From IMG/VR virus record IMGVR_UViG_2579778866_000006: a stretch of DNA of 35,265 bases; one strand, written 5' to 3'. Of the stretch, positions 3,484 through 33,880 are shown one piece after another. This DNA is from a virus (taxonomy: Duplodnaviria > Heunggongvirae > Uroviricota > Caudoviricetes). The notes under the pieces are model-generated. The model was not told where the DNA came from. It did no database searches and saw only the letters and a program-made list of their open reading frames with translations. Numbering within the stretch: the first letter of the stretch is position 1; each line of letters opens with the position of its first letter. The translations under genes were made by a program, and so were the position numbers.

Positions 3484-3995
3484 TGGCTGTACCAAAACAT
3501 CTTCGCTTTTTTACGCTGTTTGTGGATGGTGAAAACGAAGTGGGTAAGGTGACGTCTGTCACTCTACCTAAGCTGACGCGCAAAACCGACAGCTACCGGG
3601 GTGGTGGCATGATGGGTGCGGTAAGTATTGATCTCGGTCTGGACGACTCCGCGCTTGATGCGAGCTTTGTCATGGGGGGCGCAGTTCGTGAGCTGTTCCT
3701 TAAGTATGGCGGCACGATTGACGGCACGCTGCTGCGTTTTGCGGGTGAATACTACACCGATGCAGAAAGCGACCTGTATGAAGTCGAAATGCGCGGACGT
3801 GTGACGGAAATTGATATGGGGGAAGCCAAACAGGGCGAAGCCACATCACACACTTACGCCATTAAAAACACCTACTACAAGCTGAGTGTTAACGATCGCC
3901 CGTTGTGGGAGATTGACCTGCTGAACTTCATTTACCGGAAGGACGGCAAGGACATTGTGCCCGATCGCATCCGTTCCGCGCTCGGGCTTGGCTGA
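3483..3995 (+). CDS. FII: Tail tube protein FII
   Basis: 170 aa; P2 FII-like (SVTLPKLTRKTDSYRGGGM, LGLDD); start overlaps the FI stop. Confidence 0.9.
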   Translation: MAVPKHLRFFTLFVDGENEVGKVTSVTLPKLTRKTDSYRGGGMMGAVSIDLGLDDSALDASFVMGGAVRELFLKYGGTIDGTLLRFAGEYYTDAESDLYEVEMRGRVTEIDMGEAKQGEATSHTYAIKNTYYKLSVNDRPLWEIDLLNFIYRKDGKDIVPDRIRSALGLG

Positions 3996-4049
3996 TAAGT
4001 AATATGCAGGCGGCGCAGTGCGTCGCCTCTGACTGAAAGGAGTTTCCTG

Positions 4050-15382: not shown

Positions 15383-15833
15383 CCCACGTCACATCCTGGA
15401 ATACATGCGACCAGTCGCCTTCGGAAGAGGGCAGACGGGGTTTTGGCTCCGGCAGGTGTTCTGCCTGCGGCGTGCCCTGACTGCTGCGCGTGATGCGAAC
15501 GCGTTCCCGCAGAGGGAGCGTAAACAGGAGATCGGCGCTGTCATCGTCATTGATAACGGCGGAGAATTTGATGTCCTGATTACGCTCCGGATTGAGCAAC
15601 AACTGTGGCTGATTTTCGGATAACCACGCCAGTAGCGGCAGCGTGAGGTCGTCCAGCTCCCCGGCGTAATCCATGACAAACATCACCATCTGATAGCGGT
15701 AAACAAACGAGGGAGTTTCTCCGGTCGTTTCAATGTTGCCGCTCTCCACGAAAATGGTGAATTTTTCCGGGTTAGCCTGACACCATCGGCATGAACGGGT
15801 CATGGCTTCACGCAGGGAATCAGTTTTCAGCAT
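15366..15833 (-). CDS. R: Tail completion protein R
   Basis: 155 aa, same size as P2 R; lies between the lysis cassette and S. Confidence 0.75.
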   Translation of the reverse strand: MLKTDSLREAMTRSCRWCQANPEKFTIFVESGNIETTGETPSFVYRYQMVMFVMDYAGELDDLTLPLLAWLSENQPQLLLNPERNQDIKFSAVINDDDSADLLFTLPLRERVRITRSSQGTPQAEHLPEPKPRLPSSEGDWSHVFQDVTWGESDG

Positions 15834-16140
15834 GGTTGTTGTCCTCGTTGTTCAGTCGTTGCAGCCTGCGCTGTTCCAGTAATTCAATGGCCCGTTTATC
15901 CGCGTTACAGGTTTCCAGTGCATCCAGAAGGCGGTCGCCCCATATACCGAGATTTCCCCATGTGGGAGTGTCAGGGAAGGGGGGAGGCGTTACCGGTATG
16001 GTCAGCGTCTGCGGTATAAGCCGGACTGACGGCGCTGGCAGTGGCGCGTTCTGCGTGCCTGCGCAACCTGTCAGTAAAACGAGCGTCAGGCAAAGCGTGG
16101 GCGCATTCATCTTTTGCAATATCGTTGCGTAGCTGTTCAC
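15820..16140 (-). CDS. Outer-membrane spanin (LysC/Rz1-like lipoprotein), overlapping the i-spanin in another frame
   Basis: 106 aa; signal peptide with lipobox LLTGC; proline-rich; starts inside the 15971..16366 gene, the classic overlapped spanin architecture. Confidence 0.6.
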   Translation of the reverse strand: MNSYATILQKMNAPTLCLTLVLLTGCAGTQNAPLPAPSVRLIPQTLTIPVTPPPFPDTPTWGNLGIWGDRLLDALETCNADKRAIELLEQRRLQRLNNEDNNHAEN

Positions 16141-16366
16141 GTCTGGCCTCTCCGTCCTGATTGCGTTGCTGATTTTCCGCGCGGAGTTGTGCCAGCACCT
16201 GCTGCATATCCTGTACCCCGGCGCTGATGATATTCAGGGTGTCGACGGTACGTTTCAGGGTGCTGGCCTGCGCTTCGTTTCTGGCGTTCTCCCGGCCCAG
16301 CGACCACGACAGACGCAATGCGGCAATCAGAAGAAAAGCGACGCCCAGAGAAGTCCATAACTTCAT
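15971..16366 (-). CDS. Inner-membrane spanin (LysB/Rz-like)
   Basis: 131 aa; N-terminal TM segment (LWTSLGVAFLLIAAL) followed by a charged coiled-coil region; downstream of the endolysin. Confidence 0.6.
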   Translation of the reverse strand: MKLWTSLGVAFLLIAALRLSWSLGRENARNEAQASTLKRTVDTLNIISAGVQDMQQVLAQLRAENQQRNQDGEARREQLRNDIAKDECAHALPDARFTDRLRRHAERATASAVSPAYTADADHTGNASPLP

Positions 16367-16908
16367 GCTGCCACGCGTTCCTTTATCCAGCCGTAGACAA
16401 ACGACTCGTTGGCTTCGCGTTTTTCCGCCAGCTCCAGATAGCGTTCACCCTGTGTACAGTTCAGTGCTGTTAACATCACCATCTCGCCGTCCCGACCGCG
16501 TTTTTCCAGATATGCACGCAATGCGTTAATCGTGCGTGGGCCAGTGCGTCCGTCCGTGTCCATATCGGGATACAGTTTCCCGCCCTGATTGAATACGTTC
16601 AGCCAGCGCTGAAGCATTCTGGTTGCCACAGACGGCCCCATATTTACTCCGGTGTCACACAGTTCTGCGGCAATATCCGGGGACAGCTTCGCTATCTGAT
16701 CAAAACGCGGTCCGTACCAGTAATCAGCTTCAAGGATTTCCAGTGCCTGTCCGCGCGTTAAATCACGCATATCGCCACGGTATCCGTGCGCTCGTGCCAC
16801 CTTTTCAGTGATGCCCCATTTTGTCGGACCGCCTCTGTCATCCGGGTGATTGACGTAGCCGCCTTCTTTGCCAAGAACGGCATCAAAAATTTCGTCTTTC
16901 GATTTCAT
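16363..16908 (-). CDS. Endolysin, glycoside hydrolase family 108-like N-terminal domain with C-terminal peptidoglycan-binding domain
   Basis: 181 aa; N-terminus IFDAVLGKEGGYVNHPDDRGGPTKWGIT is the GH108-type signature; sits in the lysis cassette after the holin. Confidence 0.75.
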   Translation of the reverse strand: MKSKDEIFDAVLGKEGGYVNHPDDRGGPTKWGITEKVARAHGYRGDMRDLTRGQALEILEADYWYGPRFDQIAKLSPDIAAELCDTGVNMGPSVATRMLQRWLNVFNQGGKLYPDMDTDGRTGPRTINALRAYLEKRGRDGEMVMLTALNCTQGERYLELAEKREANESFVYGWIKERVAA

Positions 16909-16962
16909 TTCGTCACCTCTGTGAATGATTTTTATGGTGATTACCGGCTTTAATCCTGTGGC

Positions 16963-17286
16963 TTATTCATCTCCCTTTTGGGTTATGCGGTTAAAGGCGG
17001 CAATGATCTTGTCGCGTGCTTTTTCTGCGCCCATAAAACCGATAGATGCGCCGAAAAACGTCACGGCATCCTCAGGAACTCCGAAGAAGCGCAACGACCC
17101 GGCCACGGCCATGGCAAGAACGCCGCACGCCAGCGATCCCGTTACGGTCTGAACCAGCGTTCGTCCGTCATAAAGACTCATCAGCGCGGAAATGCTGACT
17201 GCCGCGCCTGCTGCATACACCGTTGGCAGGTGGTCAAAGAGCCACGCAATAACCTGCTCTGTGATCCCTGTTTGAATGGTGCTCAC
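16963..17286 (-). CDS. Holin (probable; start placed at an internal GTG preceded by GGGGGAG)
   Basis: Track ORF 16963..17505 overlaps X; the product from the internal start (about 107 aa) has three hydrophobic segments and a charged C-terminus; position X-holin-endolysin as in P2 X-Y-K. Confidence 0.55.
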   Translation of the reverse strand: MSTIQTGITEQVIAWLFDHLPTVYAAGAAVSISALMSLYDGRTLVQTVTGSLACGVLAMAVAGSLRFFGVPEDAVTFFGASIGFMGAEKARDKIIAAFNRITQKGDE

Positions 17287-17288
17287 TA

Positions 17289-17495
17289 CTACTCCCCCCA
17301 CAACTGAATCATTTCTCGTTTCTTCTTCTCCGGCTCCGGCATCTCCACGTCCTGTCCGGCGTCCAGAAATACCTGCTGACAGAGTCCGGGGTTGGCATCC
17401 AGCACCTTTTCGGTGACGCCCTGCGTCGTGCCGTAGTACCGGAAACAGAGCGAATCCACGGTGTCGCCTTCCAGTGCCTTCACTTTCATCAGCAC
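17289..17495 (-). CDS. X: Tail protein X (LysM-like)
   Basis: 68 aa; similar to P2 gpX (ALQGDTLDAICVRYYG.T.GVVE.VL.ANPGL pattern: KALEGDTVDSLCFRYYGTTQGVTEKVLDANPGL). Confidence 0.85.
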   Translation of the reverse strand: MLMKVKALEGDTVDSLCFRYYGTTQGVTEKVLDANPGLCQQVFLDAGQDVEMPEPEKKKREMIQLWGE

Positions 17496-17992
17496 AGCTC
17501 CGCAAAAATTCGCGGGCGGCGCAGAATGTCAGAGATGGCCCAGCTCACATCGCGCCACAAATCCGATGTCTGTATATCCAGCGCGTCCGCCCGGCGGTCG
17601 CCCTTATCCGTTGTGTCCGCATCGCGGTAACGCTCCAGAATCAGGGCGCGTGTGGCGGTATAAACAGCATTGCGCCAGTGCCAGAGATTGACGCTTTCTC
17701 CGTTAATTACGGGTGCCGGAACATCGGCCAGCGTCTGATGGCCAGCCGCCTGCTGTTCCTGCTGCCACGCTTCCAGCTCGCGGGTAACGTGTGCCACGGC
17801 CCCGGTGGCGGTATGCAGCAGGCGGGAGGTGGTCACACGGCCCGGCAGTCGTATCGCCAGACGCAGCTCACGCAGCACAATATCCGGCCAGAATGCACCC
17901 GCTGAAATACGGGTATCACCATCATCGGTATCGGTGATGTCGTCCTCTGCGGGTCCGGGGTTGGTTCTGGCAACCATACTCATGGGGTTCAC
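17489..17992 (-). CDS. L: Head completion/stabilisation protein L
   Basis: 167 aa; position between M and X, size as P2 L. Confidence 0.8.
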   Translation of the reverse strand: MNPMSMVARTNPGPAEDDITDTDDGDTRISAGAFWPDIVLRELRLAIRLPGRVTTSRLLHTATGAVAHVTRELEAWQQEQQAAGHQTLADVPAPVINGESVNLWHWRNAVYTATRALILERYRDADTTDKGDRRADALDIQTSDLWRDVSWAISDILRRPRIFAELC

Positions 17993-25399: not shown

Positions 25400-25711
25400 T
25401 TATTCGGGAAATAACGCCCGGATATTTCCGGCCATCTGACTGGTTATCTGTGCGGTTGATACTGGCTGTGACGCGGGGCATTCTGTCCTGGTTTGTGTCA
25501 CTGATAACGCCTCATCGTCAGCCCATGCAGCCAGTCGGTAAGCCTCTGCCGGATTCATTTTCAGAAGTGCCAGCCCGGCCAGAAAAGCCACGCGTTGGCC
25601 GCTTTTGCGGGCTTCTGGTGTAAGGCTGTCCAGCCAGGCGCATGCTTCGCTTTCGTTCTTGACGGCCGCAGGCTTCAGATAGAAACTTATCCGTCTGGTT
25701 GGTGTCGTCAT
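25400..25711 (-). CDS. ParR-like small protein downstream of parM (putative centromere-binding adaptor)
   Basis: ATG (MTTPTRR) lies 4 nt after the parM stop, with AGGAG overlapping that stop; about 103 aa. Assignment rests on position and size only. Confidence 0.45.
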   Translation of the reverse strand: MTTPTRRISFYLKPAAVKNESEACAWLDSLTPEARKSGQRVAFLAGLALLKMNPAEAYRLAAWADDEALSVTQTRTECPASQPVSTAQITSQMAGNIRALFPE

Positions 25712-25715
25712 TGGT

Positions 25716-26675
25716 TTACTCCTTGTCCATTGCGTACAGCCCATTAACCAGAGCAAACTGTGGCACCCCGTCCGCGATGAAAGTCGCATTAACTCCGCAG
25801 GCTTCGCGGATAGCGGGTGCCACAATCTCCGTCCCGCCACCGACAACCATCACCCGCCCGTAACCCGAAAAACCCGCCAGCGCGCGGATCACGCGTTGTT
25901 TCAGTGTTTCTTCCTTTTCACGAATAACCGCCATCAGGCTGGCGTAATGCGCGTCATTGTGGATGTGCTGGCGCAGCCAGGCTTCATCATGGCGATGTTC
26001 GATAATGGTATTGGCGATGTGGTGACTGGTGCGCATACCGTTAGTGGCCATCACCGACAGTACGGCATCGGCCATCAGAGAAACGCCTACGTGTGGATCG
26101 CAAAACACCTGGCTGATACCTGCCAGTTGCCCCTGAACCTTTGCCACATCCAGCGTGGTTCCGCCCAAATCCACAATCAGCAGGGATTCAAACGGACTCA
26201 TGTCAGCCAGTGCTTTAAAGCCAGCCGGAATAGATTCAGGCATAACCCGCACGTTACGGATAGTGAATGCCTCGCCGTTCTGGTACTCCACCGGGCGCAT
26301 AACGTTCGCTTTTTTGCGGTTGATGTTGGCCATGTCCGGCTGTGCGTTTGTGTCGAAATACTCGCTCAGTGGCAGGGTGACAACCACATCCACCTCCTGT
26401 GGCGTGATGCCTGATTTGACCAGCGCATGATGAATGGCAATGACATTCACATCGCTGTACTGGTATTGCGTGTCGGTCGTCTGGACAAAGCGATCGCTGA
26501 CCGGATCAAAACCATAGCGCACGCCATCAAGCATGTAGTTCGCGGGCTGCGTGCCACCGAACGGCGCAGACCATTCCGACTTGAAGCTGTTCGGGCTGAT
26601 GGCGTTGCGGCGTTCGCCGTTCTCAGTCCATGCCAGCTTGATGTTGGTGGAGCCGTCGTCGATACAAATTTTCAT
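25716..26675 (-). CDS. parM: ParM/StbA-family actin-like ATPase (plasmid segregation protein homologue)
   Basis: 319 aa; strong resemblance along the whole length to plasmid R1 ParM (IDDGSTNIKL, SPNSFK, QYSDVNV.A.HHAL, ANF/ANV, VMPESIPAG, LLI.DLGGTTLD, FSGY..VMV.GGG, LVNG.Y). Confidence 0.85.
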   Translation of the reverse strand: MKICIDDGSTNIKLAWTENGERRNAISPNSFKSEWSAPFGGTQPANYMLDGVRYGFDPVSDRFVQTTDTQYQYSDVNVIAIHHALVKSGITPQEVDVVVTLPLSEYFDTNAQPDMANINRKKANVMRPVEYQNGEAFTIRNVRVMPESIPAGFKALADMSPFESLLIVDLGGTTLDVAKVQGQLAGISQVFCDPHVGVSLMADAVLSVMATNGMRTSHHIANTIIEHRHDEAWLRQHIHNDAHYASLMAVIREKEETLKQRVIRALAGFSGYGRVMVVGGGTEIVAPAIREACGVNATFIADGVPQFALVNGLYAMDKE

Positions 26676-26751: not shown

Positions 26752-29592
26752 TCATATATCGCTGCGCGTTTTTTGCTCATTTACGGGATTCGTGAGTCCC
26801 GTTTCTGTCTGTTTTTTGTTTCCACTGGTCAGGCCACCCCGCAGCAGGTCTGCTTTGCGGCTGGCGCGTTCAGTGGTTTCACTGATTCTCTGTGTGTGCT
26901 CTGCGTCGCGGATGGCGCGCAGCATGTCAGAAAGCACGGTAACGGGTGTTTTCATGGTGTTCTGGTCCTGCTGAAGTGTGGATGCCAGGCGTGCGGCGGC
27001 TTCAGGGTCTGATGCCCCCAGCTGTGCCAGATAGCTGGCGACCGGGTTATGGCGGATCTCCGTGCTGCTTACGCCATGATTACGGCTCAGGCGCTGCCAG
27101 AGCTGCGTGATTCGGCTGTCCGGGCGGGTATCCGGTTTGCGTACAATTTCAAATCCCTGCGGTGCAATGATGCTGCCGTCAACGTACAGACTGCCGCCCC
27201 GTAACAGGTGCTGCATCTGTTGTTCACCGATATGCAGGCCGAGAGATTCAGCAGACTCCCGCCATTCTTTAGCGAGTAATTCGTGGTTATCAGGCAAAGG
27301 CCGCTGCTGTTTACGGCTCTGTGTCCAGCTCTGCATTTCATCACTGCTGTTTTTTGCCTGTTTGTCACGAAGCGAACGCATCAGCGCCCGGCGTTCGTGC
27401 CGTTTCAGTGAGCGCATCCATTCGTTCACTTCAACGCCGTCAGGGAGCTGCGGCCACGGTACTGGCCGTTCTTCCGGCTGTTCTGTCCCGTTGTTGTCCG
27501 TTTCCTGTACACGGGGACAGTTATTGCCACGAGTCCAAGGGGCGGCAGGGCCGCCCTGAAGGTCAAAACCATTTTCGCGGGCGCTGTCTTCCGCTTCCGG
27601 TTTACGTCTTACCAGCTTCCAGTTATCCGGGTGCGTGCACACGCGGGAAGACTCCCCGATGAGCGGCGACCAGATCCCGTAAATCTGTACACTCTGCTCG
27701 CCGTAATCGTTCAGCTCATCTGCGAGGTCGTAGGCGGTGCGAATCAGGTAGTCTTTGCGTGGAACAAGTACGCCACCCTGTTTCTCAATGTAGGTGGCAA
27801 AACATCCGGCATCAGCGGCAGCGAGTACCGCGTCCATTGCGTCATCCTTCAGCCGTTGCGGGCCTTCCGGGTTGCGTGCCATCTGGCTGGCAAGGCGGCG
27901 CAGTTCACGCCACACCTGACGGGAGGGGATACCAAAGAACTGGAACTGGCGGACCCGGTGAAGGCGCGCCCAGCCGATGGCGCGTTCCACGCTCTCGGCC
28001 ATTGATTTTCCGGTTTCGTGGTCAACGCGTGGCTTGCCCGTTTTCGGGTCGATGCCATCCACGGCGCGGCTGTCCAGGTTCTTTCCGATGTAGGTGGCGA
28101 TGTAGCTGGTTGGTGTGCCTTTTGAGCCGTCGACATACTCCACCTTAAAGCGCGGAGTAATATCATTGCCCAGCTCGTGGCGGTCTTCCTGAATGGCAAT
28201 ATCGCGGGTGATGGCCACGATGCTGTCGATTTCTTCCGGATGAGCAAAGACCATCATGTGCCAGTGCACGGTGCCGTCATGGTGAGGCTCCACCGTGCGG
28301 ATGCCATACCAGCGCAGGCCGTCGCGGTTCAGTTTTTTGCGGACCGCCGCAAAAAACGTGTTAACCAGGTAATCGCTGGAGTCGCGCATGGTGGCCCCGT
28401 TCCATTTGGGGTTCGGATGACCGTTCTCCGTTGTTGCGTGGTATTTTGACGGGCAGGTGACAGTCAGAAACACCGCTCTGTCGCCACGGGCTTCGGCCAG
28501 AAGTTCCAGTCCCTTCATGGTGGCCATCATTTCTGCCTTACGGTGGACCGGGTTACTTACTCCCGCGTAATACACCGTCTCGAGATCAATCGTGAACCCG
28601 TCTTCGTTTTCCAGCATGAAACTTTTCAGGAAATCGCGTGTTTTCTCGCGCTGTGCGCGAAACTCGCTTAACGCGTCCTGGCTCAGATAGGGCGATGTTT
28701 TTCTGGAAACCAGACAGGCGGCGCGGAGTTGTTCTTCCCGCCACTCGCAACGTAACAGCCACAGTTTGCGTTTCCACCATTCTGCACAGGTCAGGCGGAG
28801 GATTGCGCCCGGCAGCAGTTCCGTGTCCGGTTCGTTCTTGCGGTCTTTGTCTGTTGTCAGTGCGTCATAATGTGGAGGCATGGCGTGCAGGTGTAACGCC
28901 ATGCGGGCCAGCATCTGATACGCCTTCAGTGCCACCTCCATGGTCAGCTCACCATCGGTCGCGCCAAAGCCATCGCAGAGTTTTTCGAAGGTGCTGCTGA
29001 ACATCGCCGCCGTCATGGTGGCCAGCGTCTGTATCTGGTGCTTGTTGAGCTGCGGCAGGTAAAGCAAATCATCCAGGCGTTCGCGTCCGGCAAGGGAGCG
29101 ATAACCCGGTGTCAGCCAGCGGTGGTCGGTGCGGTCCAGGCGTTCGAATATTTTGCGCAGGGTTCCGCGCGCGTAGCGTTCAGCCTGCCAGCTCTTTTTG
29201 CCTTTCTGGCGATCGGCTTCCTGTTTTTTGCGCAGGAAAGAGAGGTGGCGGCTCAGAGGTTCACGCAGATAAACGGGAAGCACCTTCAGTGTGGCAAAAG
29301 CACGGGCTACCGGGTCTTGTTCTGTTGCCCGGCGCTTACTGATGATGCTCTGAGCCAGCTTTTCACGCTGTCCGGCTTCCTCAAGGGATGCCATGAGTTT
29401 TTTACCCATGGCGGATTGTGCGAAAAAGGCTTCCTCCTTCGCTTCCTGTTCTTCCCGGGCCTTTTTGTCCGCCTCAAGGTAGTAACGGATGGCGCGTTGC
29501 AGGTCGGTTTCAGTTTCCTGCCTGCGCTCCGTAAATCTGGCCGGATCAATGGCTGGTCGTGGTTCATTCCAGCTCCATGCAAACTCACTCAT
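26752..29592 (-). CDS. A: Replication initiation endonuclease A (rolling-circle initiator)
   Basis: Large ORF at the end of the early operon with P2/186 A-family features (HWHMMVF histidine motif, YIATYIGKNLD); start placed at MSEFAWSW, whose ATG overlaps the upstream stop (ATGA). Longer than P2 A. Confidence 0.85.
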   Translation of the reverse strand: MSEFAWSWNEPRPAIDPARFTERRQETETDLQRAIRYYLEADKKAREEQEAKEEAFFAQSAMGKKLMASLEEAGQREKLAQSIISKRRATEQDPVARAFATLKVLPVYLREPLSRHLSFLRKKQEADRQKGKKSWQAERYARGTLRKIFERLDRTDHRWLTPGYRSLAGRERLDDLLYLPQLNKHQIQTLATMTAAMFSSTFEKLCDGFGATDGELTMEVALKAYQMLARMALHLHAMPPHYDALTTDKDRKNEPDTELLPGAILRLTCAEWWKRKLWLLRCEWREEQLRAACLVSRKTSPYLSQDALSEFRAQREKTRDFLKSFMLENEDGFTIDLETVYYAGVSNPVHRKAEMMATMKGLELLAEARGDRAVFLTVTCPSKYHATTENGHPNPKWNGATMRDSSDYLVNTFFAAVRKKLNRDGLRWYGIRTVEPHHDGTVHWHMMVFAHPEEIDSIVAITRDIAIQEDRHELGNDITPRFKVEYVDGSKGTPTSYIATYIGKNLDSRAVDGIDPKTGKPRVDHETGKSMAESVERAIGWARLHRVRQFQFFGIPSRQVWRELRRLASQMARNPEGPQRLKDDAMDAVLAAADAGCFATYIEKQGGVLVPRKDYLIRTAYDLADELNDYGEQSVQIYGIWSPLIGESSRVCTHPDNWKLVRRKPEAEDSARENGFDLQGGPAAPWTRGNNCPRVQETDNNGTEQPEERPVPWPQLPDGVEVNEWMRSLKRHERRALMRSLRDKQAKNSSDEMQSWTQSRKQQRPLPDNHELLAKEWRESAESLGLHIGEQQMQHLLRGGSLYVDGSIIAPQGFEIVRKPDTRPDSRITQLWQRLSRNHGVSSTEIRHNPVASYLAQLGASDPEAAARLASTLQQDQNTMKTPVTVLSDMLRAIRDAEHTQRISETTERASRKADLLRGGLTSGNKKQTETGLTNPVNEQKTRSDI

Positions 29593-29978
29593 GGCTGGTA
29601 TCCCGTCACGCGCTGCCACTCCTGCGAGAAGATGGCGGAAAGGCGGTCAAATTCAGCGGTGTATTCACTCAGCGAGGCACACCCGCCAGCAGTGCGATGC
29701 GCCAGTATTGCCGCAAATACGGAGGCCGGGGAGTCGTAATACGCCAGTAGTGATTCGCCGTGTGGTGTCAGGCAGTGCAACGCCAGCCCGTGTGGTGTGA
29801 AGTCCACGCGGTAGCAGTCGTCTACTGTGAAATAAAGGGTGTCTGCATTCTCCGGTTTTGTGGTGCGTGCTCTGTTGTCACGACCACGGATGTAGAGATC
29901 AAATAATCCCTGAAGAACGGGAGCCAGACGGGTGTCCTGTGTGCGCACCCATCTTGTGAAGTCATGAGCGTCAATCAT
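29589..29978 (-). CDS. Hypothetical early protein (129 aa)
   Basis: ORF translationally coupled to A (ATGA overlap). Confidence 0.6.
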   Translation of the reverse strand: MIDAHDFTRWVRTQDTRLAPVLQGLFDLYIRGRDNRARTTKPENADTLYFTVDDCYRVDFTPHGLALHCLTPHGESLLAYYDSPASVFAAILAHRTAGGCASLSEYTAEFDRLSAIFSQEWQRVTGYQP

Positions 29979-30050
29979 GCTGCAATTCTCTTTACTACAG
30001 ATGTGCGAAGGCCTCCCGCCGCAAGGTGCAGGAAAGGCCCGGAACAGGAA

Positions 30051-30281
30051 TTAATGGAGTTTGTTTTGCTGCTGGAAGAGCTGCTGAAGCTCGCGCAGAT
30101 CATCCGCCAGATAGCTGAAAACAGCGGATGAGTAGAGGTTTGAAAGTTCGCAGCTACGCTCATGCAGCATATTGATGTGCATGATTTTAGCGACGCGGAA
30201 TGCGCGGGAAAGTCTGCGGTTGATTTCAGTCTGGATGTGACGACGCTCCGCGATAGCGCGGTGCTGTTTGCGGTCTGCCAT
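30051..30281 (-). CDS. Hypothetical early protein (76 aa)
   Basis: ATG preceded by AAAGAGG; basic helical protein. Confidence 0.55.
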   Translation of the reverse strand: MADRKQHRAIAERRHIQTEINRRLSRAFRVAKIMHINMLHERSCELSNLYSSAVFSYLADDLRELQQLFQQQNKLH

Positions 30282-30458
30282 GGTGTGGCCTCTTTGGTTG
30301 TAAGTTTTGAAAACTCACCATCCAGAGCTGCGAAACAGTGGGTGGCGAGACGTACGAGGTTCGCAGTACCGGCAACCAAAGAACCCGGCCCGACCGAAGT
30401 CGGCCCCGTACGCCCCGCCATAATTCGTGTGCGAAAAAGACGTGGCAATACAGTACGC

Positions 30459-30483
30459 ACAAAAAAACCGCTGGCGCGGTTGT
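30459..30483 (-). terminator. Intrinsic terminator-like hairpin inside the early operon
   Basis: On the minus strand: stem aaccgc / gcggtt (loop gcca) followed by TTTTTTT. Confidence 0.5.
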
Positions 30484-30601
30484 GCGCTTTGGTTGTCAGC
30501 AGGCTGCGAAACCCGGCACCCGTTTTATGAGGTGCAGCGGAAATGTAACCTGACTGATTGCGGCATGGCAAGCGGTTTTTTTGTGTGTACATGATGCTCA
30601 T

Positions 30602-31953: not shown

Positions 31954-32370
31954 CTATGCGTTAAATGCGGCACGTTGCGCGTCATCAATGAATACAGCTT
32001 GAGAGCGTTCTATCAGGCGGAGATTTGTCAGAAGCTCTGACTCTTTTGTGTGGTAAGGCGTTATCAGGTATTTGCCGTGCAGTTCGGCAATAATGGTGTA
32101 TTGCAGCATCATTGCTGAACCAAGAATATAAATGCAGCGTCCAATGCTGGACGGATTCATGGCTGCAACTGTTGACTGTGTTTTAAGAGTGTCGATTTCT
32201 TTGCTCTGTTCCTCAATAATTTTGGCTGCGTCAGCGGTGATTTTTGCAATGGTCAGTGCGTGAAGTGCTGCCATATGTTGGCTACGCTTCACGGCATCTT
32301 TAGCTATTTCAGCTTCCGCTTCTGATATTTTTTTTAATGTGTCGATAATGCCTTCTTCTTTTGCATTCAT
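31954..32370 (-). CDS. Hypothetical protein (138 aa)
   Basis: ORF in the early operon; helical N-terminus. Confidence 0.55.
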   Translation of the reverse strand: MNAKEEGIIDTLKKISEAEAEIAKDAVKRSQHMAALHALTIAKITADAAKIIEEQSKEIDTLKTQSTVAAMNPSSIGRCIYILGSAMMLQYTIIAELHGKYLITPYHTKESELLTNLRLIERSQAVFIDDAQRAAFNA

Positions 32371-32462
32371 TTTATATCTCCGTTATTTACGTGTGCGAAT
32401 ACCTCCGCGAATGCGGATAGTTTTCAGGTTTTCGGGTTTAATCTGGTGTTTTGTTTAAGCTG

Positions 32463-32576
32463 TTATTCGTCAGTGAAAAAGCGTTCAATCTTTTTTACTG
32501 AATGAATAATTCGCATAATCCCAATGGCGCAGGCCACCGAAATAATCAGAGCAAGCCATGAGATAAATATACTCAT
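32463..32576 (-). CDS. Small hydrophobic peptide (37 aa), single predicted transmembrane helix, translationally coupled (ATGA) to the upstream ORF
   Basis: Not in the ORF track (below its length cutoff). My translation of the minus strand: MSIFISWLALIISVACAIGIMRIIHSVKKIERFFTDE; start ATG overlaps the TGA of 32573..32815. Confidence 0.45.
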   Translation of the reverse strand: MSIFISWLALIISVACAIGIMRIIHSVKKIERFFTDE

Positions 32577-32815
32577 GCGATATTCCCCAGCTTATACGGT
32601 TCAATGTGTTCCCCGCATTCTGCGGCACAGATCAGCTCGGAAAGTTCGTTAAGTGCATCCAGATCATCAGCGTAAAAAGCCACGTCATACAGACTCCGGA
32701 TTGCCCTGGTCAATGAGTCGCGGGCTGCACGTTCAGCATGAGCGCCTGATGCACTTAAGCGAAAATAAAAACGCTCAAGTGCTTTGTTAATGAGAGTTTT
32801 ATATTCTTTGCCCAT
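32573..32815 (-). CDS. Hypothetical protein (80 aa)
   Basis: ORF in the early operon. Confidence 0.5.
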   Translation of the reverse strand: MGKEYKTLINKALERFYFRLSASGAHAERAARDSLTRAIRSLYDVAFYADDLDALNELSELICAAECGEHIEPYKLGNIA

Positions 32816-32826
32816 CGCAACGCCCT

Positions 32827-33117
32827 TTAATCTGCTTTCTGAATTTCAGTTTCTGAATCCATACAAATAATTTCGATATAGGGTTCATCGCCATTAACCT
32901 GGCGTGCCTTTTCAGCTTCGCTAATAATTTCTCGTACGGTCTGGTACGGAAGTTCCACAAGCAGTCGCGTGCCGTTCAGATAAACGTAAGTGGCTTCGTC
33001 GGCTCCGTTTTTACCCGCCGGAGTCACTCCATCAATAGCGGATGCACGTAATAACAGTTCACCGCGAAAATCAATAAAACGGATAAATACACCTTGTGCA
33101 TGCTCTTTGGTCATAAC
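32827..33117 (-). CDS. Hypothetical protein (about 96 aa from an internal Met)
   Basis: Track ORF 32827..33174 overlaps the upstream gene; a likely start is MTKEHAQGV. Confidence 0.45.
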   Translation of the reverse strand, partial: VMTKEHAQGVFIRFIDFRGELLLRASAIDGVTPAGKNGADEATYVYLNGTRLLVELPYQTVREIISEAEKARQVNGDEPYIEIICMDSETEIQKAD

Positions 33118-33484: not shown

Positions 33485-33811
33485 TCATGCAGCAAAATTA
33501 AGAAAGCCTAATCCCAAATCTTCCGCCAGCTTCTTGGCTTTCTTAAGCCAGTGGTTGCGCCAATCTTTACGCTCAGGAGGAAGCTGTTTCGTTGCGTCAT
33601 AGACCATTTCGAGCCACTCATTCCAAAGGATGAGAAGACGGCGCGAACTCCCTTCCTCGCCTAAAACCTCGCGCTCAGTAGTTAGAGGGATGAGTCGACG
33701 CTCTACCAACTTTCTTACGGCTGATTCGGTCTTACCTGTGCGGCGGGAAAACTCATCGACGGTGATGGGGTCTGGGATCTTAAACAATGCCCTCAATAGT
33801 TCTTCATTCAT
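33485..33811 (-). CDS. cox: Cox-like excisionase / early regulator
   Basis: Divergent from the C repressor; from the internal Met (MNEELLRALF...) the protein shows a P2 Cox-like HTH (ESAVRKLVERRLIPL) and tryptophan-rich C-terminal part. Confidence 0.6.
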   Translation of the reverse strand: MNEELLRALFKIPDPITVDEFSRRTGKTESAVRKLVERRLIPLTTEREVLGEEGSSRRLLILWNEWLEMVYDATKQLPPERKDWRNHWLKKAKKLAEDLGLGFLNFAA

Positions 33812-33880
33812 GTGATAATCTCCCTGTTTGGGGTATTTCTTGCGACGGATGCCCCAAATCAAACTCATTTGTATAAACAT

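Follow-up and report, generated by a model that had tools for sequence, protein, structure and literature searches.

MgrB, AcrZ, SgrT and CydX are examples of small proteins that regulate larger membrane proteins. Phages too have membrane proteins that are directed, early on, at the host or at other phages, among them T4 Imm and Sp, P22 SieA and HK97 gp15; in size, the known exclusion proteins far exceed the 37-aa peptide considered here. Regulators of the first kind form a reviewed class of small membrane proteins, and the same review describes the type I toxins, which are shorter than 60 aa, have one transmembrane (TM) helix with short extensions, and are in some cases prophage-borne (PMC12648545). 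The type I toxins reviewed comprise Hok/Gef, Ldr, TisB, DinQ, ShoB, Ibs and ZorO, together with the prophage-borne BsrG/TxpA/YonT of B. subtilis (PMC12648545).

The gene analysed here encodes a molecule of a kind already known, a phage-encoded single-pass small membrane protein. It is like the type I toxins in being a small hydrophobic peptide with one TM helix, but differs from them in having no sequence membership, no antisense RNA and no promoter or leader of its own, in a helix without polar residues, and in being coupled within a lytic operon. With the small membrane-protein regulators it shares a length below 50 aa, a single helix and a conserved face suited to TM-helix binding and, by analogy, this is the class that it most plausibly works like, although those regulators are chromosomal host genes with known partners, whereas this gene is phage-encoded, would be expressed in early lytic growth and has no sequence similarity to them. 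Like T4 Imm and Sp, P22 SieA and HK97 gp15, the product is phage-encoded and non-structural, and would act at or through the envelope or host physiology. In phage 186, itself of the P2 family, fil and dhr have a similar place in the early operon, but Fil and Dhr are without a comparable TM helix. We found no comparable small hydrophobic ORF in the early operons of P2 and 186, and as these phages do without such a gene, it is an accessory, lineage-specific one.

The window, a stretch of 35,265 nt (IMG/VR record IMGVR_UViG_2579778866_000006), belongs to the P88 type of P2-family prophages (genus Xuanwuvirus, Peduoviridae), for which the closest phage records were Citrobacter phage phiSM, P88 and Xuanwuvirus P884B11. 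In E. coli chromosomes the corresponding region adjoins pheA and carries an integrase and a P2-type C repressor. The minus-strand gene order in the window is a Cox-like gene (33485-33880), DUF4761, a phrog_3800 protein, DUF4754, the small ORF, variable small genes and a GPA-type replication protein (26752-29619), with intergenic distances from −50 to +92 nt on one strand as far as a 183-aa HTH gene. The placement of the small ORF within the early operon, as originally predicted, was recovered, between the Cox-like and gpA-like replication genes of a P2-type prophage.

The small ORF, a member of the P88 gp07 family recognized by its intact frame, its pN/pS ratio and public annotation, was present where it had been described, at positions 32463..32576 (37 codons plus stop); the strand, which had been left unstated, is the minus strand, and its translation is MSIFISWLALIISVACAIGIMRIIHSVKKIERFFTDE. 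The start codon of the small ORF (ATG, 32576-32574) and the stop codon (TGA, 32575-32573) of the 80-aa DUF4754 gene that precedes it (32573..32815, minus strand, Pfam E=2.8e-54) have two bases in common, forming an ATGA at 32573..32576 on the minus strand. This start/stop overlap, also noted in the original prediction, was seen here and in every relative checked (138 of 138 loci and all five diverged clade loci), and it implies that the two genes would be translationally coupled by termination-reinitiation. A purine-rich, Shine-Dalgarno (SD)-like GGGGAA lies within the last DUF4754 codons (32583..32588, minus strand), 8 nt 5' of the ATG; 16 of the 84 close loci had the weaker GGGAAA, while the diverged clades carried a purine-rich motif at the equivalent place (GAGGAG, AAGGGG, AGAGG, CAGGAGG) despite different upstream protein ends. 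We also observed an inverted repeat, CAUGAG(N9)CUCAUG (32555-32577, minus strand), whose 6-bp stem encloses the start codon and retains about five pairs in the diverged clades, as read by eye from the sequences. This stem could tie initiation to the upstream ribosome; the RNA fold around the start, inverted repeat included, was no more stable than shuffled sequence (z=−0.02).

The description of the ORF as unannotated held solely for the ORF track used at the time, since PGAP, P88 and UniRef records of it exist. PGAP annotates a 114-nt CDS for a "hypothetical protein" in E. coli genomes (WP_000021654.1, the V9 allele), and the P88 gp07 "membrane protein" (YP_009113050.1) is the same gene, with 94.6% identity over 37 aa by tblastn, the same slot after DUF4754, the same 4-nt overlap and the same 37-aa length. 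Compared with the P88, RefSeq and UniRef records, the peptide of the window differs by a few residues, with A9 in place of the V9 of most alleles. The exact peptide corresponds to UniRef A0A069FJJ5 (A0A069FJJ5_ECOLX) and occurs on at least 1000 contigs, and related UniRef entries are named "Prophage membrane protein". Of 5426 complete E. coli genomes, 1376, about a quarter, carry the pair formed by DUF4754 and the small ORF, O157:H7 and ST131 strains among them; in 1336 of the 1376 a single match covered at least 80% of the query. The public records carry no functional information, and our literature search returned nothing on the function of DUF4754, the peptide or P88 gp07.

We compared 138 loci, taken from E. 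coli chromosomes, one E. albertii locus and IMG/VR contigs, and in all of them the small ORF came after a DUF4754 gene, the two overlapping in an ATGA. The ORF was 37 aa long in 127 loci, 45 aa in ten and 30 aa in one. The original prediction had pointed to loss of the frame in homologous regions as evidence against the gene; when this comparison was run, the frame was instead kept in 138 of 138. An open frame of 37 codons is in itself unremarkable, with 89 ORFs of at least 25 aa in the surrounding 5.8 kb, and the small ORF stands above chance because it is conserved, not because the frame is open. Over codons 1-33 the pairwise pN/pS ratio was 0.23 in the annotated frame, as compared with 1.60 and 1.13 in the other sense frames, and that of DUF4754 was 0.11. 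When distinct changes were counted, 24 were synonymous and 31 non-synonymous, where 25.7% synonymous would be expected (binomial p=0.003), a modest event-based excess of synonymous changes. The replacements were conservative (I/M, L/F/I, V/I/A and A/S/T/V).

Two overlapping frames were considered as alternative genes and set aside. The antisense ORF at 32524..32652 (plus strand) had neither a conserved start nor a conserved length among relatives; its pN/pS of 0.32 comes near the constraint of the small ORF, an expected artefact because the two share third codon positions. The 47-aa GTG ORF at 32485..32628 (minus strand) was rejected since pN/pS exceeded 1 in both alternative sense frames.

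The length variants trace largely to homopolymers. A T5 run (CGC TTT TTC, 32476..32480, minus strand) is the source, through one-base deletions, of recurrent 45-aa tail variants, one T being lost in 9 of the 138 loci, on several haplotypes, so that the frame runs on to a TAA eight codons later. This run, at codons 33-34, is five or six T long in the loci compared. One more 45-aa locus showed no deletion in the T run, and the 30-aa variant arises from expansion of an A6 run (32487-32492). Loci with homopolymer length changes include L031, L057, L072, L073, L075, L078, L092, L095 and L124. The 45-aa alleles also appear as 45-aa proteins in NCBI, and these variants, together with the 30-aa form, may be true tail-switching alleles or homopolymer sequencing errors. 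As the frameshift alleles replace the last four residues, the extreme tail would appear dispensable, or else some of the records are erroneous. Proteins that appear to fuse DUF4754 to the peptide were discarded as Rosetta-stone evidence, since in each case a frameshift in a low-quality assembly carries the reading into another frame.

Beyond the close relatives, a profile search of 1.84 billion representative proteins gave 17 matches, all within the small-ORF family. The peptide had no significant match in Pfam, PHROG, NCBIfam, PADLOC or PDB sequences, and a Pfam scan to E=0.1 returned YiaAB alone, below threshold at E=0.075. Four diverged clades (P0141, P0142, P0148 and P0147), all from E. 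coli prophages, encode products of 41-59 aa, and in each the gene lies in a P2-type early region, flanked by Cox and GPA genes, and overlaps by 4 nt the 80-aa DUF4754 or DUF4754-like gene that it follows. Between clades, synonymous sites were saturated (pS 0.5-0.8) with pN at 0.2-0.37, and peptide identity was 44-64%, as compared with 26-46% for the adjacent DUF4754. Phage 503458 (L139, NC_049341.1) was rejected as a distant homologue at 54% identity since the region is full of frameshifts; in this record they fall in DUF4754, the small ORF and the replication gene (125-470), and the annotation there is unreliable. One 226-kb contig labelled "Vagococcus sp. WN89Y" (L003, NZ_JBQPOM010000071.1) carries the small ORF together with a DUF4754 gene that is 98% identical to that of E. 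coli, and this Firmicute label probably reflects assembly contamination or mislabelling.

These comparisons bear on the view that the peptide has no function, either because its translation merely keeps ribosomes on the mRNA (polarity before the 92-nt spacer) or because it is a linked chance ORF. Chance ORFs of such length are common, and most close relatives are more than 95% identical in DNA, so that an intact frame among them proves little. Against this, there is selection on the amino acid sequence, and the 44-64% peptide identity persists through saturated synonymous divergence, above that of a neighbouring bona fide protein; in addition, none of the other small ORFs among the window's 190 was as hydrophobic, and the conservation of the peptide is specific to one helical face. 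We consider an absence of function very improbable. The intact frame and the substitution pattern show that the small ORF is a genuine conserved protein-coding gene.

The constant neighbour of the small ORF raises the question of a joint function. The AF2 model of DUF4754 is a two-helix hairpin (pLDDT 89), and a fold search with this model gave no match at E≤0.001. If the two proteins were made in fixed proportion by coupled synthesis and joined in a complex, the 16-residue tail of the peptide might hold the soluble DUF4754 hairpin at the inner membrane, perhaps so as to localize some early process of the phage. In favour of such a tether, neither the adjacency nor the ATGA varied across the 138 close loci or the five diverged clades, no other function can be assigned to the small, soluble hairpin of DUF4754, and the tail motif is conserved in four clades. 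However, the junction between DUF4754 and the small ORF is itself a recombination joint: between L146 and L147 the small ORF was identical at 125 of 126 nt while DUF4754 was only 44% identical, with identity switching at the ATGA. The occurrence of one small ORF with divergent DUF4754 alleles makes an obligate co-evolved complex less likely. In addition, the 45-aa frameshift alleles swap the end of the tail, and ATGA overlaps occur at three operon junctions, that of the small ORF included, so that coupling says little for a complex. Judged on both sides, a tether is improbable, and the small ORF, always in this slot, is not bound to one DUF4754 allele.

The surroundings on the other side are variable. 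Homology with many relatives ends near 32390, about 73 nt 3' of the small-ORF stop and within the 92-nt spacer (32371..32462, minus strand) that separates it from the next gene, which may be a member of a 136-138-aa family, a 67-aa gene or another. Mosaic joints thus flank the small ORF on both sides, near 32390 and at 32573-32576 (around 3981-4020 in the comparison of L146 with L147).

The peptide itself is predicted to span the membrane once. Its putative TM core, defined by the Hessa sum and the AF2 helix, comprises codons 3-21 (32514..32570, minus strand; IFISWLALIISVACAIGIM) and contains no charged or strongly polar residue. The position-independent Hessa insertion sum for residues 3-21 was −2.5 kcal/mol, and when the ATG-ORFs encoding 30-60 aa were taken from the six frames of the whole window, the small ORF ranked 1 of 190 in hydrophobicity. 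It is also the sole early-operon product with a hydrophobic segment. An AlphaFold model built with 19 family members gave one continuous helix over residues 2-35 (pLDDT 86). Together with the conserved frame and the pN/pS ratio, the hydrophobicity and the helix model support the original prediction of a small gene for a single-pass membrane peptide. The core is followed by a juxtamembrane tail, codons 22-37 (32466..32513, minus strand; RIIHSVKKIERFFTDE), which carries a motif common to four of the five clades. Of the architecture first proposed, a transmembrane-like helix followed by a basic tail, the single hydrophobic helix stood, while the tail proved only weakly basic, with four K/R, one H and three D/E in residues 22-37, its membrane-proximal part being basic and its extreme C-terminus acidic. 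There is no basic residue before the helix, and R22, K28, K29 and R32 follow it; because the basic residues lie after the helix, we infer from the positive-inside rule that the N-terminus would be outside and the tail in the cytoplasm.

The family core, M-[SN]-[IV]-[FL]-x-S-W-...-A-[IV]-G-x-[MV]-[RK]-[IV]-I, with its single N-terminal TM helix, is present in the window. M1, S6, W7, L10, A17 and I24 were invariant or nearly so in the five clades, and positions 3, 14, 21 and 22 changed conservatively. On a helical wheel, I3, S6/W7, L10, V14, A17, M21 and I24 form a heptad-like face with a spacing of 3-4, and between-clade conservation was concentrated on one helical face by a permutation test (p=0.006), a result that is suggestive only, given five clade representatives, and in which part of the signal is due to the general demand for hydrophobic residues. 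Variation within the main clade fell mostly off the face, at positions 5, 8, 9 and 15. The tail motif, K-x-I-E-x-[FL]-F-T-[GD]-[DE], was found in four of five clades, the fifth and the frameshift alleles having other tails. C16 is kept in three of five clades, and the helix also contains the small residues A17 and G19.

These features recall in part the membrane-damaging peptides with which the product had first been compared, and the size, the single TM helix and the short extensions fit the description of type I toxins (PMC12648545). In such a case, oligomers, which C16 (in three of five clades), A17 and G19 could support, would dissipate the proton-motive force in the manner of a type I toxin, or act as a holin-like timer, with growth arrest or an effect on lysis timing. 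The likeness turned out to be one of architecture alone: an own promoter, an antisense RNA and a toxin family were sought and not found. The small ORF has neither a promoter nor a structured leader of its own, its start overlapping the preceding stop inside a long operon, and no Pfam family (apart from the sub-threshold YiaAB), PHROG, NCBIfam or PADLOC entry was matched significantly. In a consensus scan, which an atypical promoter could escape, no plus-strand promoter-like site lay over the small ORF and the regional count was at chance, so that an antisense promoter is not above chance; nor was there an Rfam match at E≤1 over 32200-32900. On the minus strand near the small ORF, promoter-like and terminator-like sites were likewise at chance by consensus scan, no terminator was found in the 92-nt spacer, and RNA at the locus and spacer folded like shuffled sequence (z=−0.02 and −0.46); explanations at the RNA level, whether an sRNA, an attenuator or a terminator, were accordingly set aside. 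Moreover, the TM core is without charged or strongly polar residues, and de-energizing the cell from the early operon would presumably hinder replication of the phage. The suggested kinship with lysis-regulating peptides also lacked positional support, since a full lysis cassette (holin/antiholin, endolysin and two Rz-like spanins) lies in the late region at 15820-17505, about 15 kb from the small ORF, which itself matched no holin or antiholin PHROG or Pfam family. We therefore regard a toxin or lysis timer as decidedly unlikely.

The position and the mosaic surroundings direct attention to other phages and to host defence. During lytic growth the peptide might block DNA entry by later phages (superinfection exclusion) or neutralize a membrane-bound effector (anti-defence). 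It is an early, lineage-specific accessory micro-gene with mosaic joints on both sides and a variable region adjoining, which is a typical accessory-gene pattern, and an inner-membrane location would suit interference with DNA entry. However, PHROGs, PADLOC and the profile search gave no similarity to known exclusion or defence proteins, the last returning only the family itself; with promoter-like sites no more frequent than expected (three found, 3.6 expected), the gene is not placed for expression from a repressed prophage, its position predicting expression in early lytic growth only; and it is unusually conserved for an arms-race gene, better than DUF4754. Exclusion or anti-defence as the specific role is thus unlikely.

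We favour, at an even chance of being right, a reading in which the product, a microprotein of the inner membrane, is made early in lytic growth and works through helix-helix binding of a partner in the membrane. This mode of binding is suggested by the position of the gene, its coupling, the predicted topology and the face-specific conservation. The peptide would be made only on derepression of the early promoter, upon infection or induction, when ribosomes ending DUF4754 would restart at the overlapping ATGA. It would insert in the inner membrane so that the two N-terminal residues face outward and the 16 residues of the tail stay cytoplasmic, and would make specific helix-helix contact through the stripe I3-S6/W7-L10-V14-A17-M21-I24 together with the K-x-I-E-x-F-F-T-G-D/E tail. 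The partner would most likely be a host inner-membrane protein, and the role that of an accessory host-takeover or entry-blocking factor modulating a membrane machine, not that of an RNA-controlled pore-forming toxin. It is possible, although on balance doubtful, that the peptide is the founding member of a group of phage TM microproteins that, early in lytic growth, dock via a heptad-like face on one specific machine of the host inner membrane.

If this were true, the target could be a component of division, transport, DNA entry or membrane-bound defence, and a new mechanism of host takeover, exclusion or anti-defence would lie silent in roughly one in four complete E. coli genomes. Were a host membrane machine targeted, the peptide would be a natural inhibitor of small size and would hint at what the envelope must provide to P88-type phages early in infection; if there were no phenotype, it would be one more conserved hypothetical gene. 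Small membrane proteins have systematically received too little study, and the target is known for very few of those that phages encode, whereas this gene is abundant, better conserved than its neighbour DUF4754 and endowed with a clear candidate interaction face, and it is also carried by the inducible phages P88 and Citrobacter phiSM.

Several further features were observed elsewhere in the window. Downstream of the small ORF, two plus-strand elements, one of them promoter-like and the other a hairpin (TCCGCGAATGCGGA) that ends in a T-rich tail, at 32322-32349 and 32404-32417 (plus strand), lie on the strand opposite the ribosome-binding region for the 138-aa gene (31954-32370, minus strand); both are consensus matches only, at chance frequency. 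Between the replication and portal genes (25400-26675, minus strand) lies a plasmid-type segregation pair, consisting of a ParM/StbA actin-like ATPase (319 aa, E=1.8e-82) and a Plasmid_stab_B protein (148 aa, E=4.3e-24); PADLOC gave no defence match in this region, which is the variable-cargo position of P2-like phages and the one in which P2 carries tin and old. Finally, at 30338-30535 (minus strand), within an "ORF" at 29975..30601, we obtained gathering-level Rfam matches to the C4 antisense RNA (RF01695, 84.5 bits, 30338-30425) and the isrK Hfq-binding RNA (RF01394, 65.9 bits, 30461-30535), and the 208-aa ORF over these RNAs looks like non-coding sequence. They are located between the 183-aa HTH protein and the gene at 29589-29978, the slot of "derepression protein" genes in related prophages, and the arrangement recalls, by analogy, P1/P7-type c4/ant or Gifsy isrK-type antirepressor control, here in a P2-type phage.
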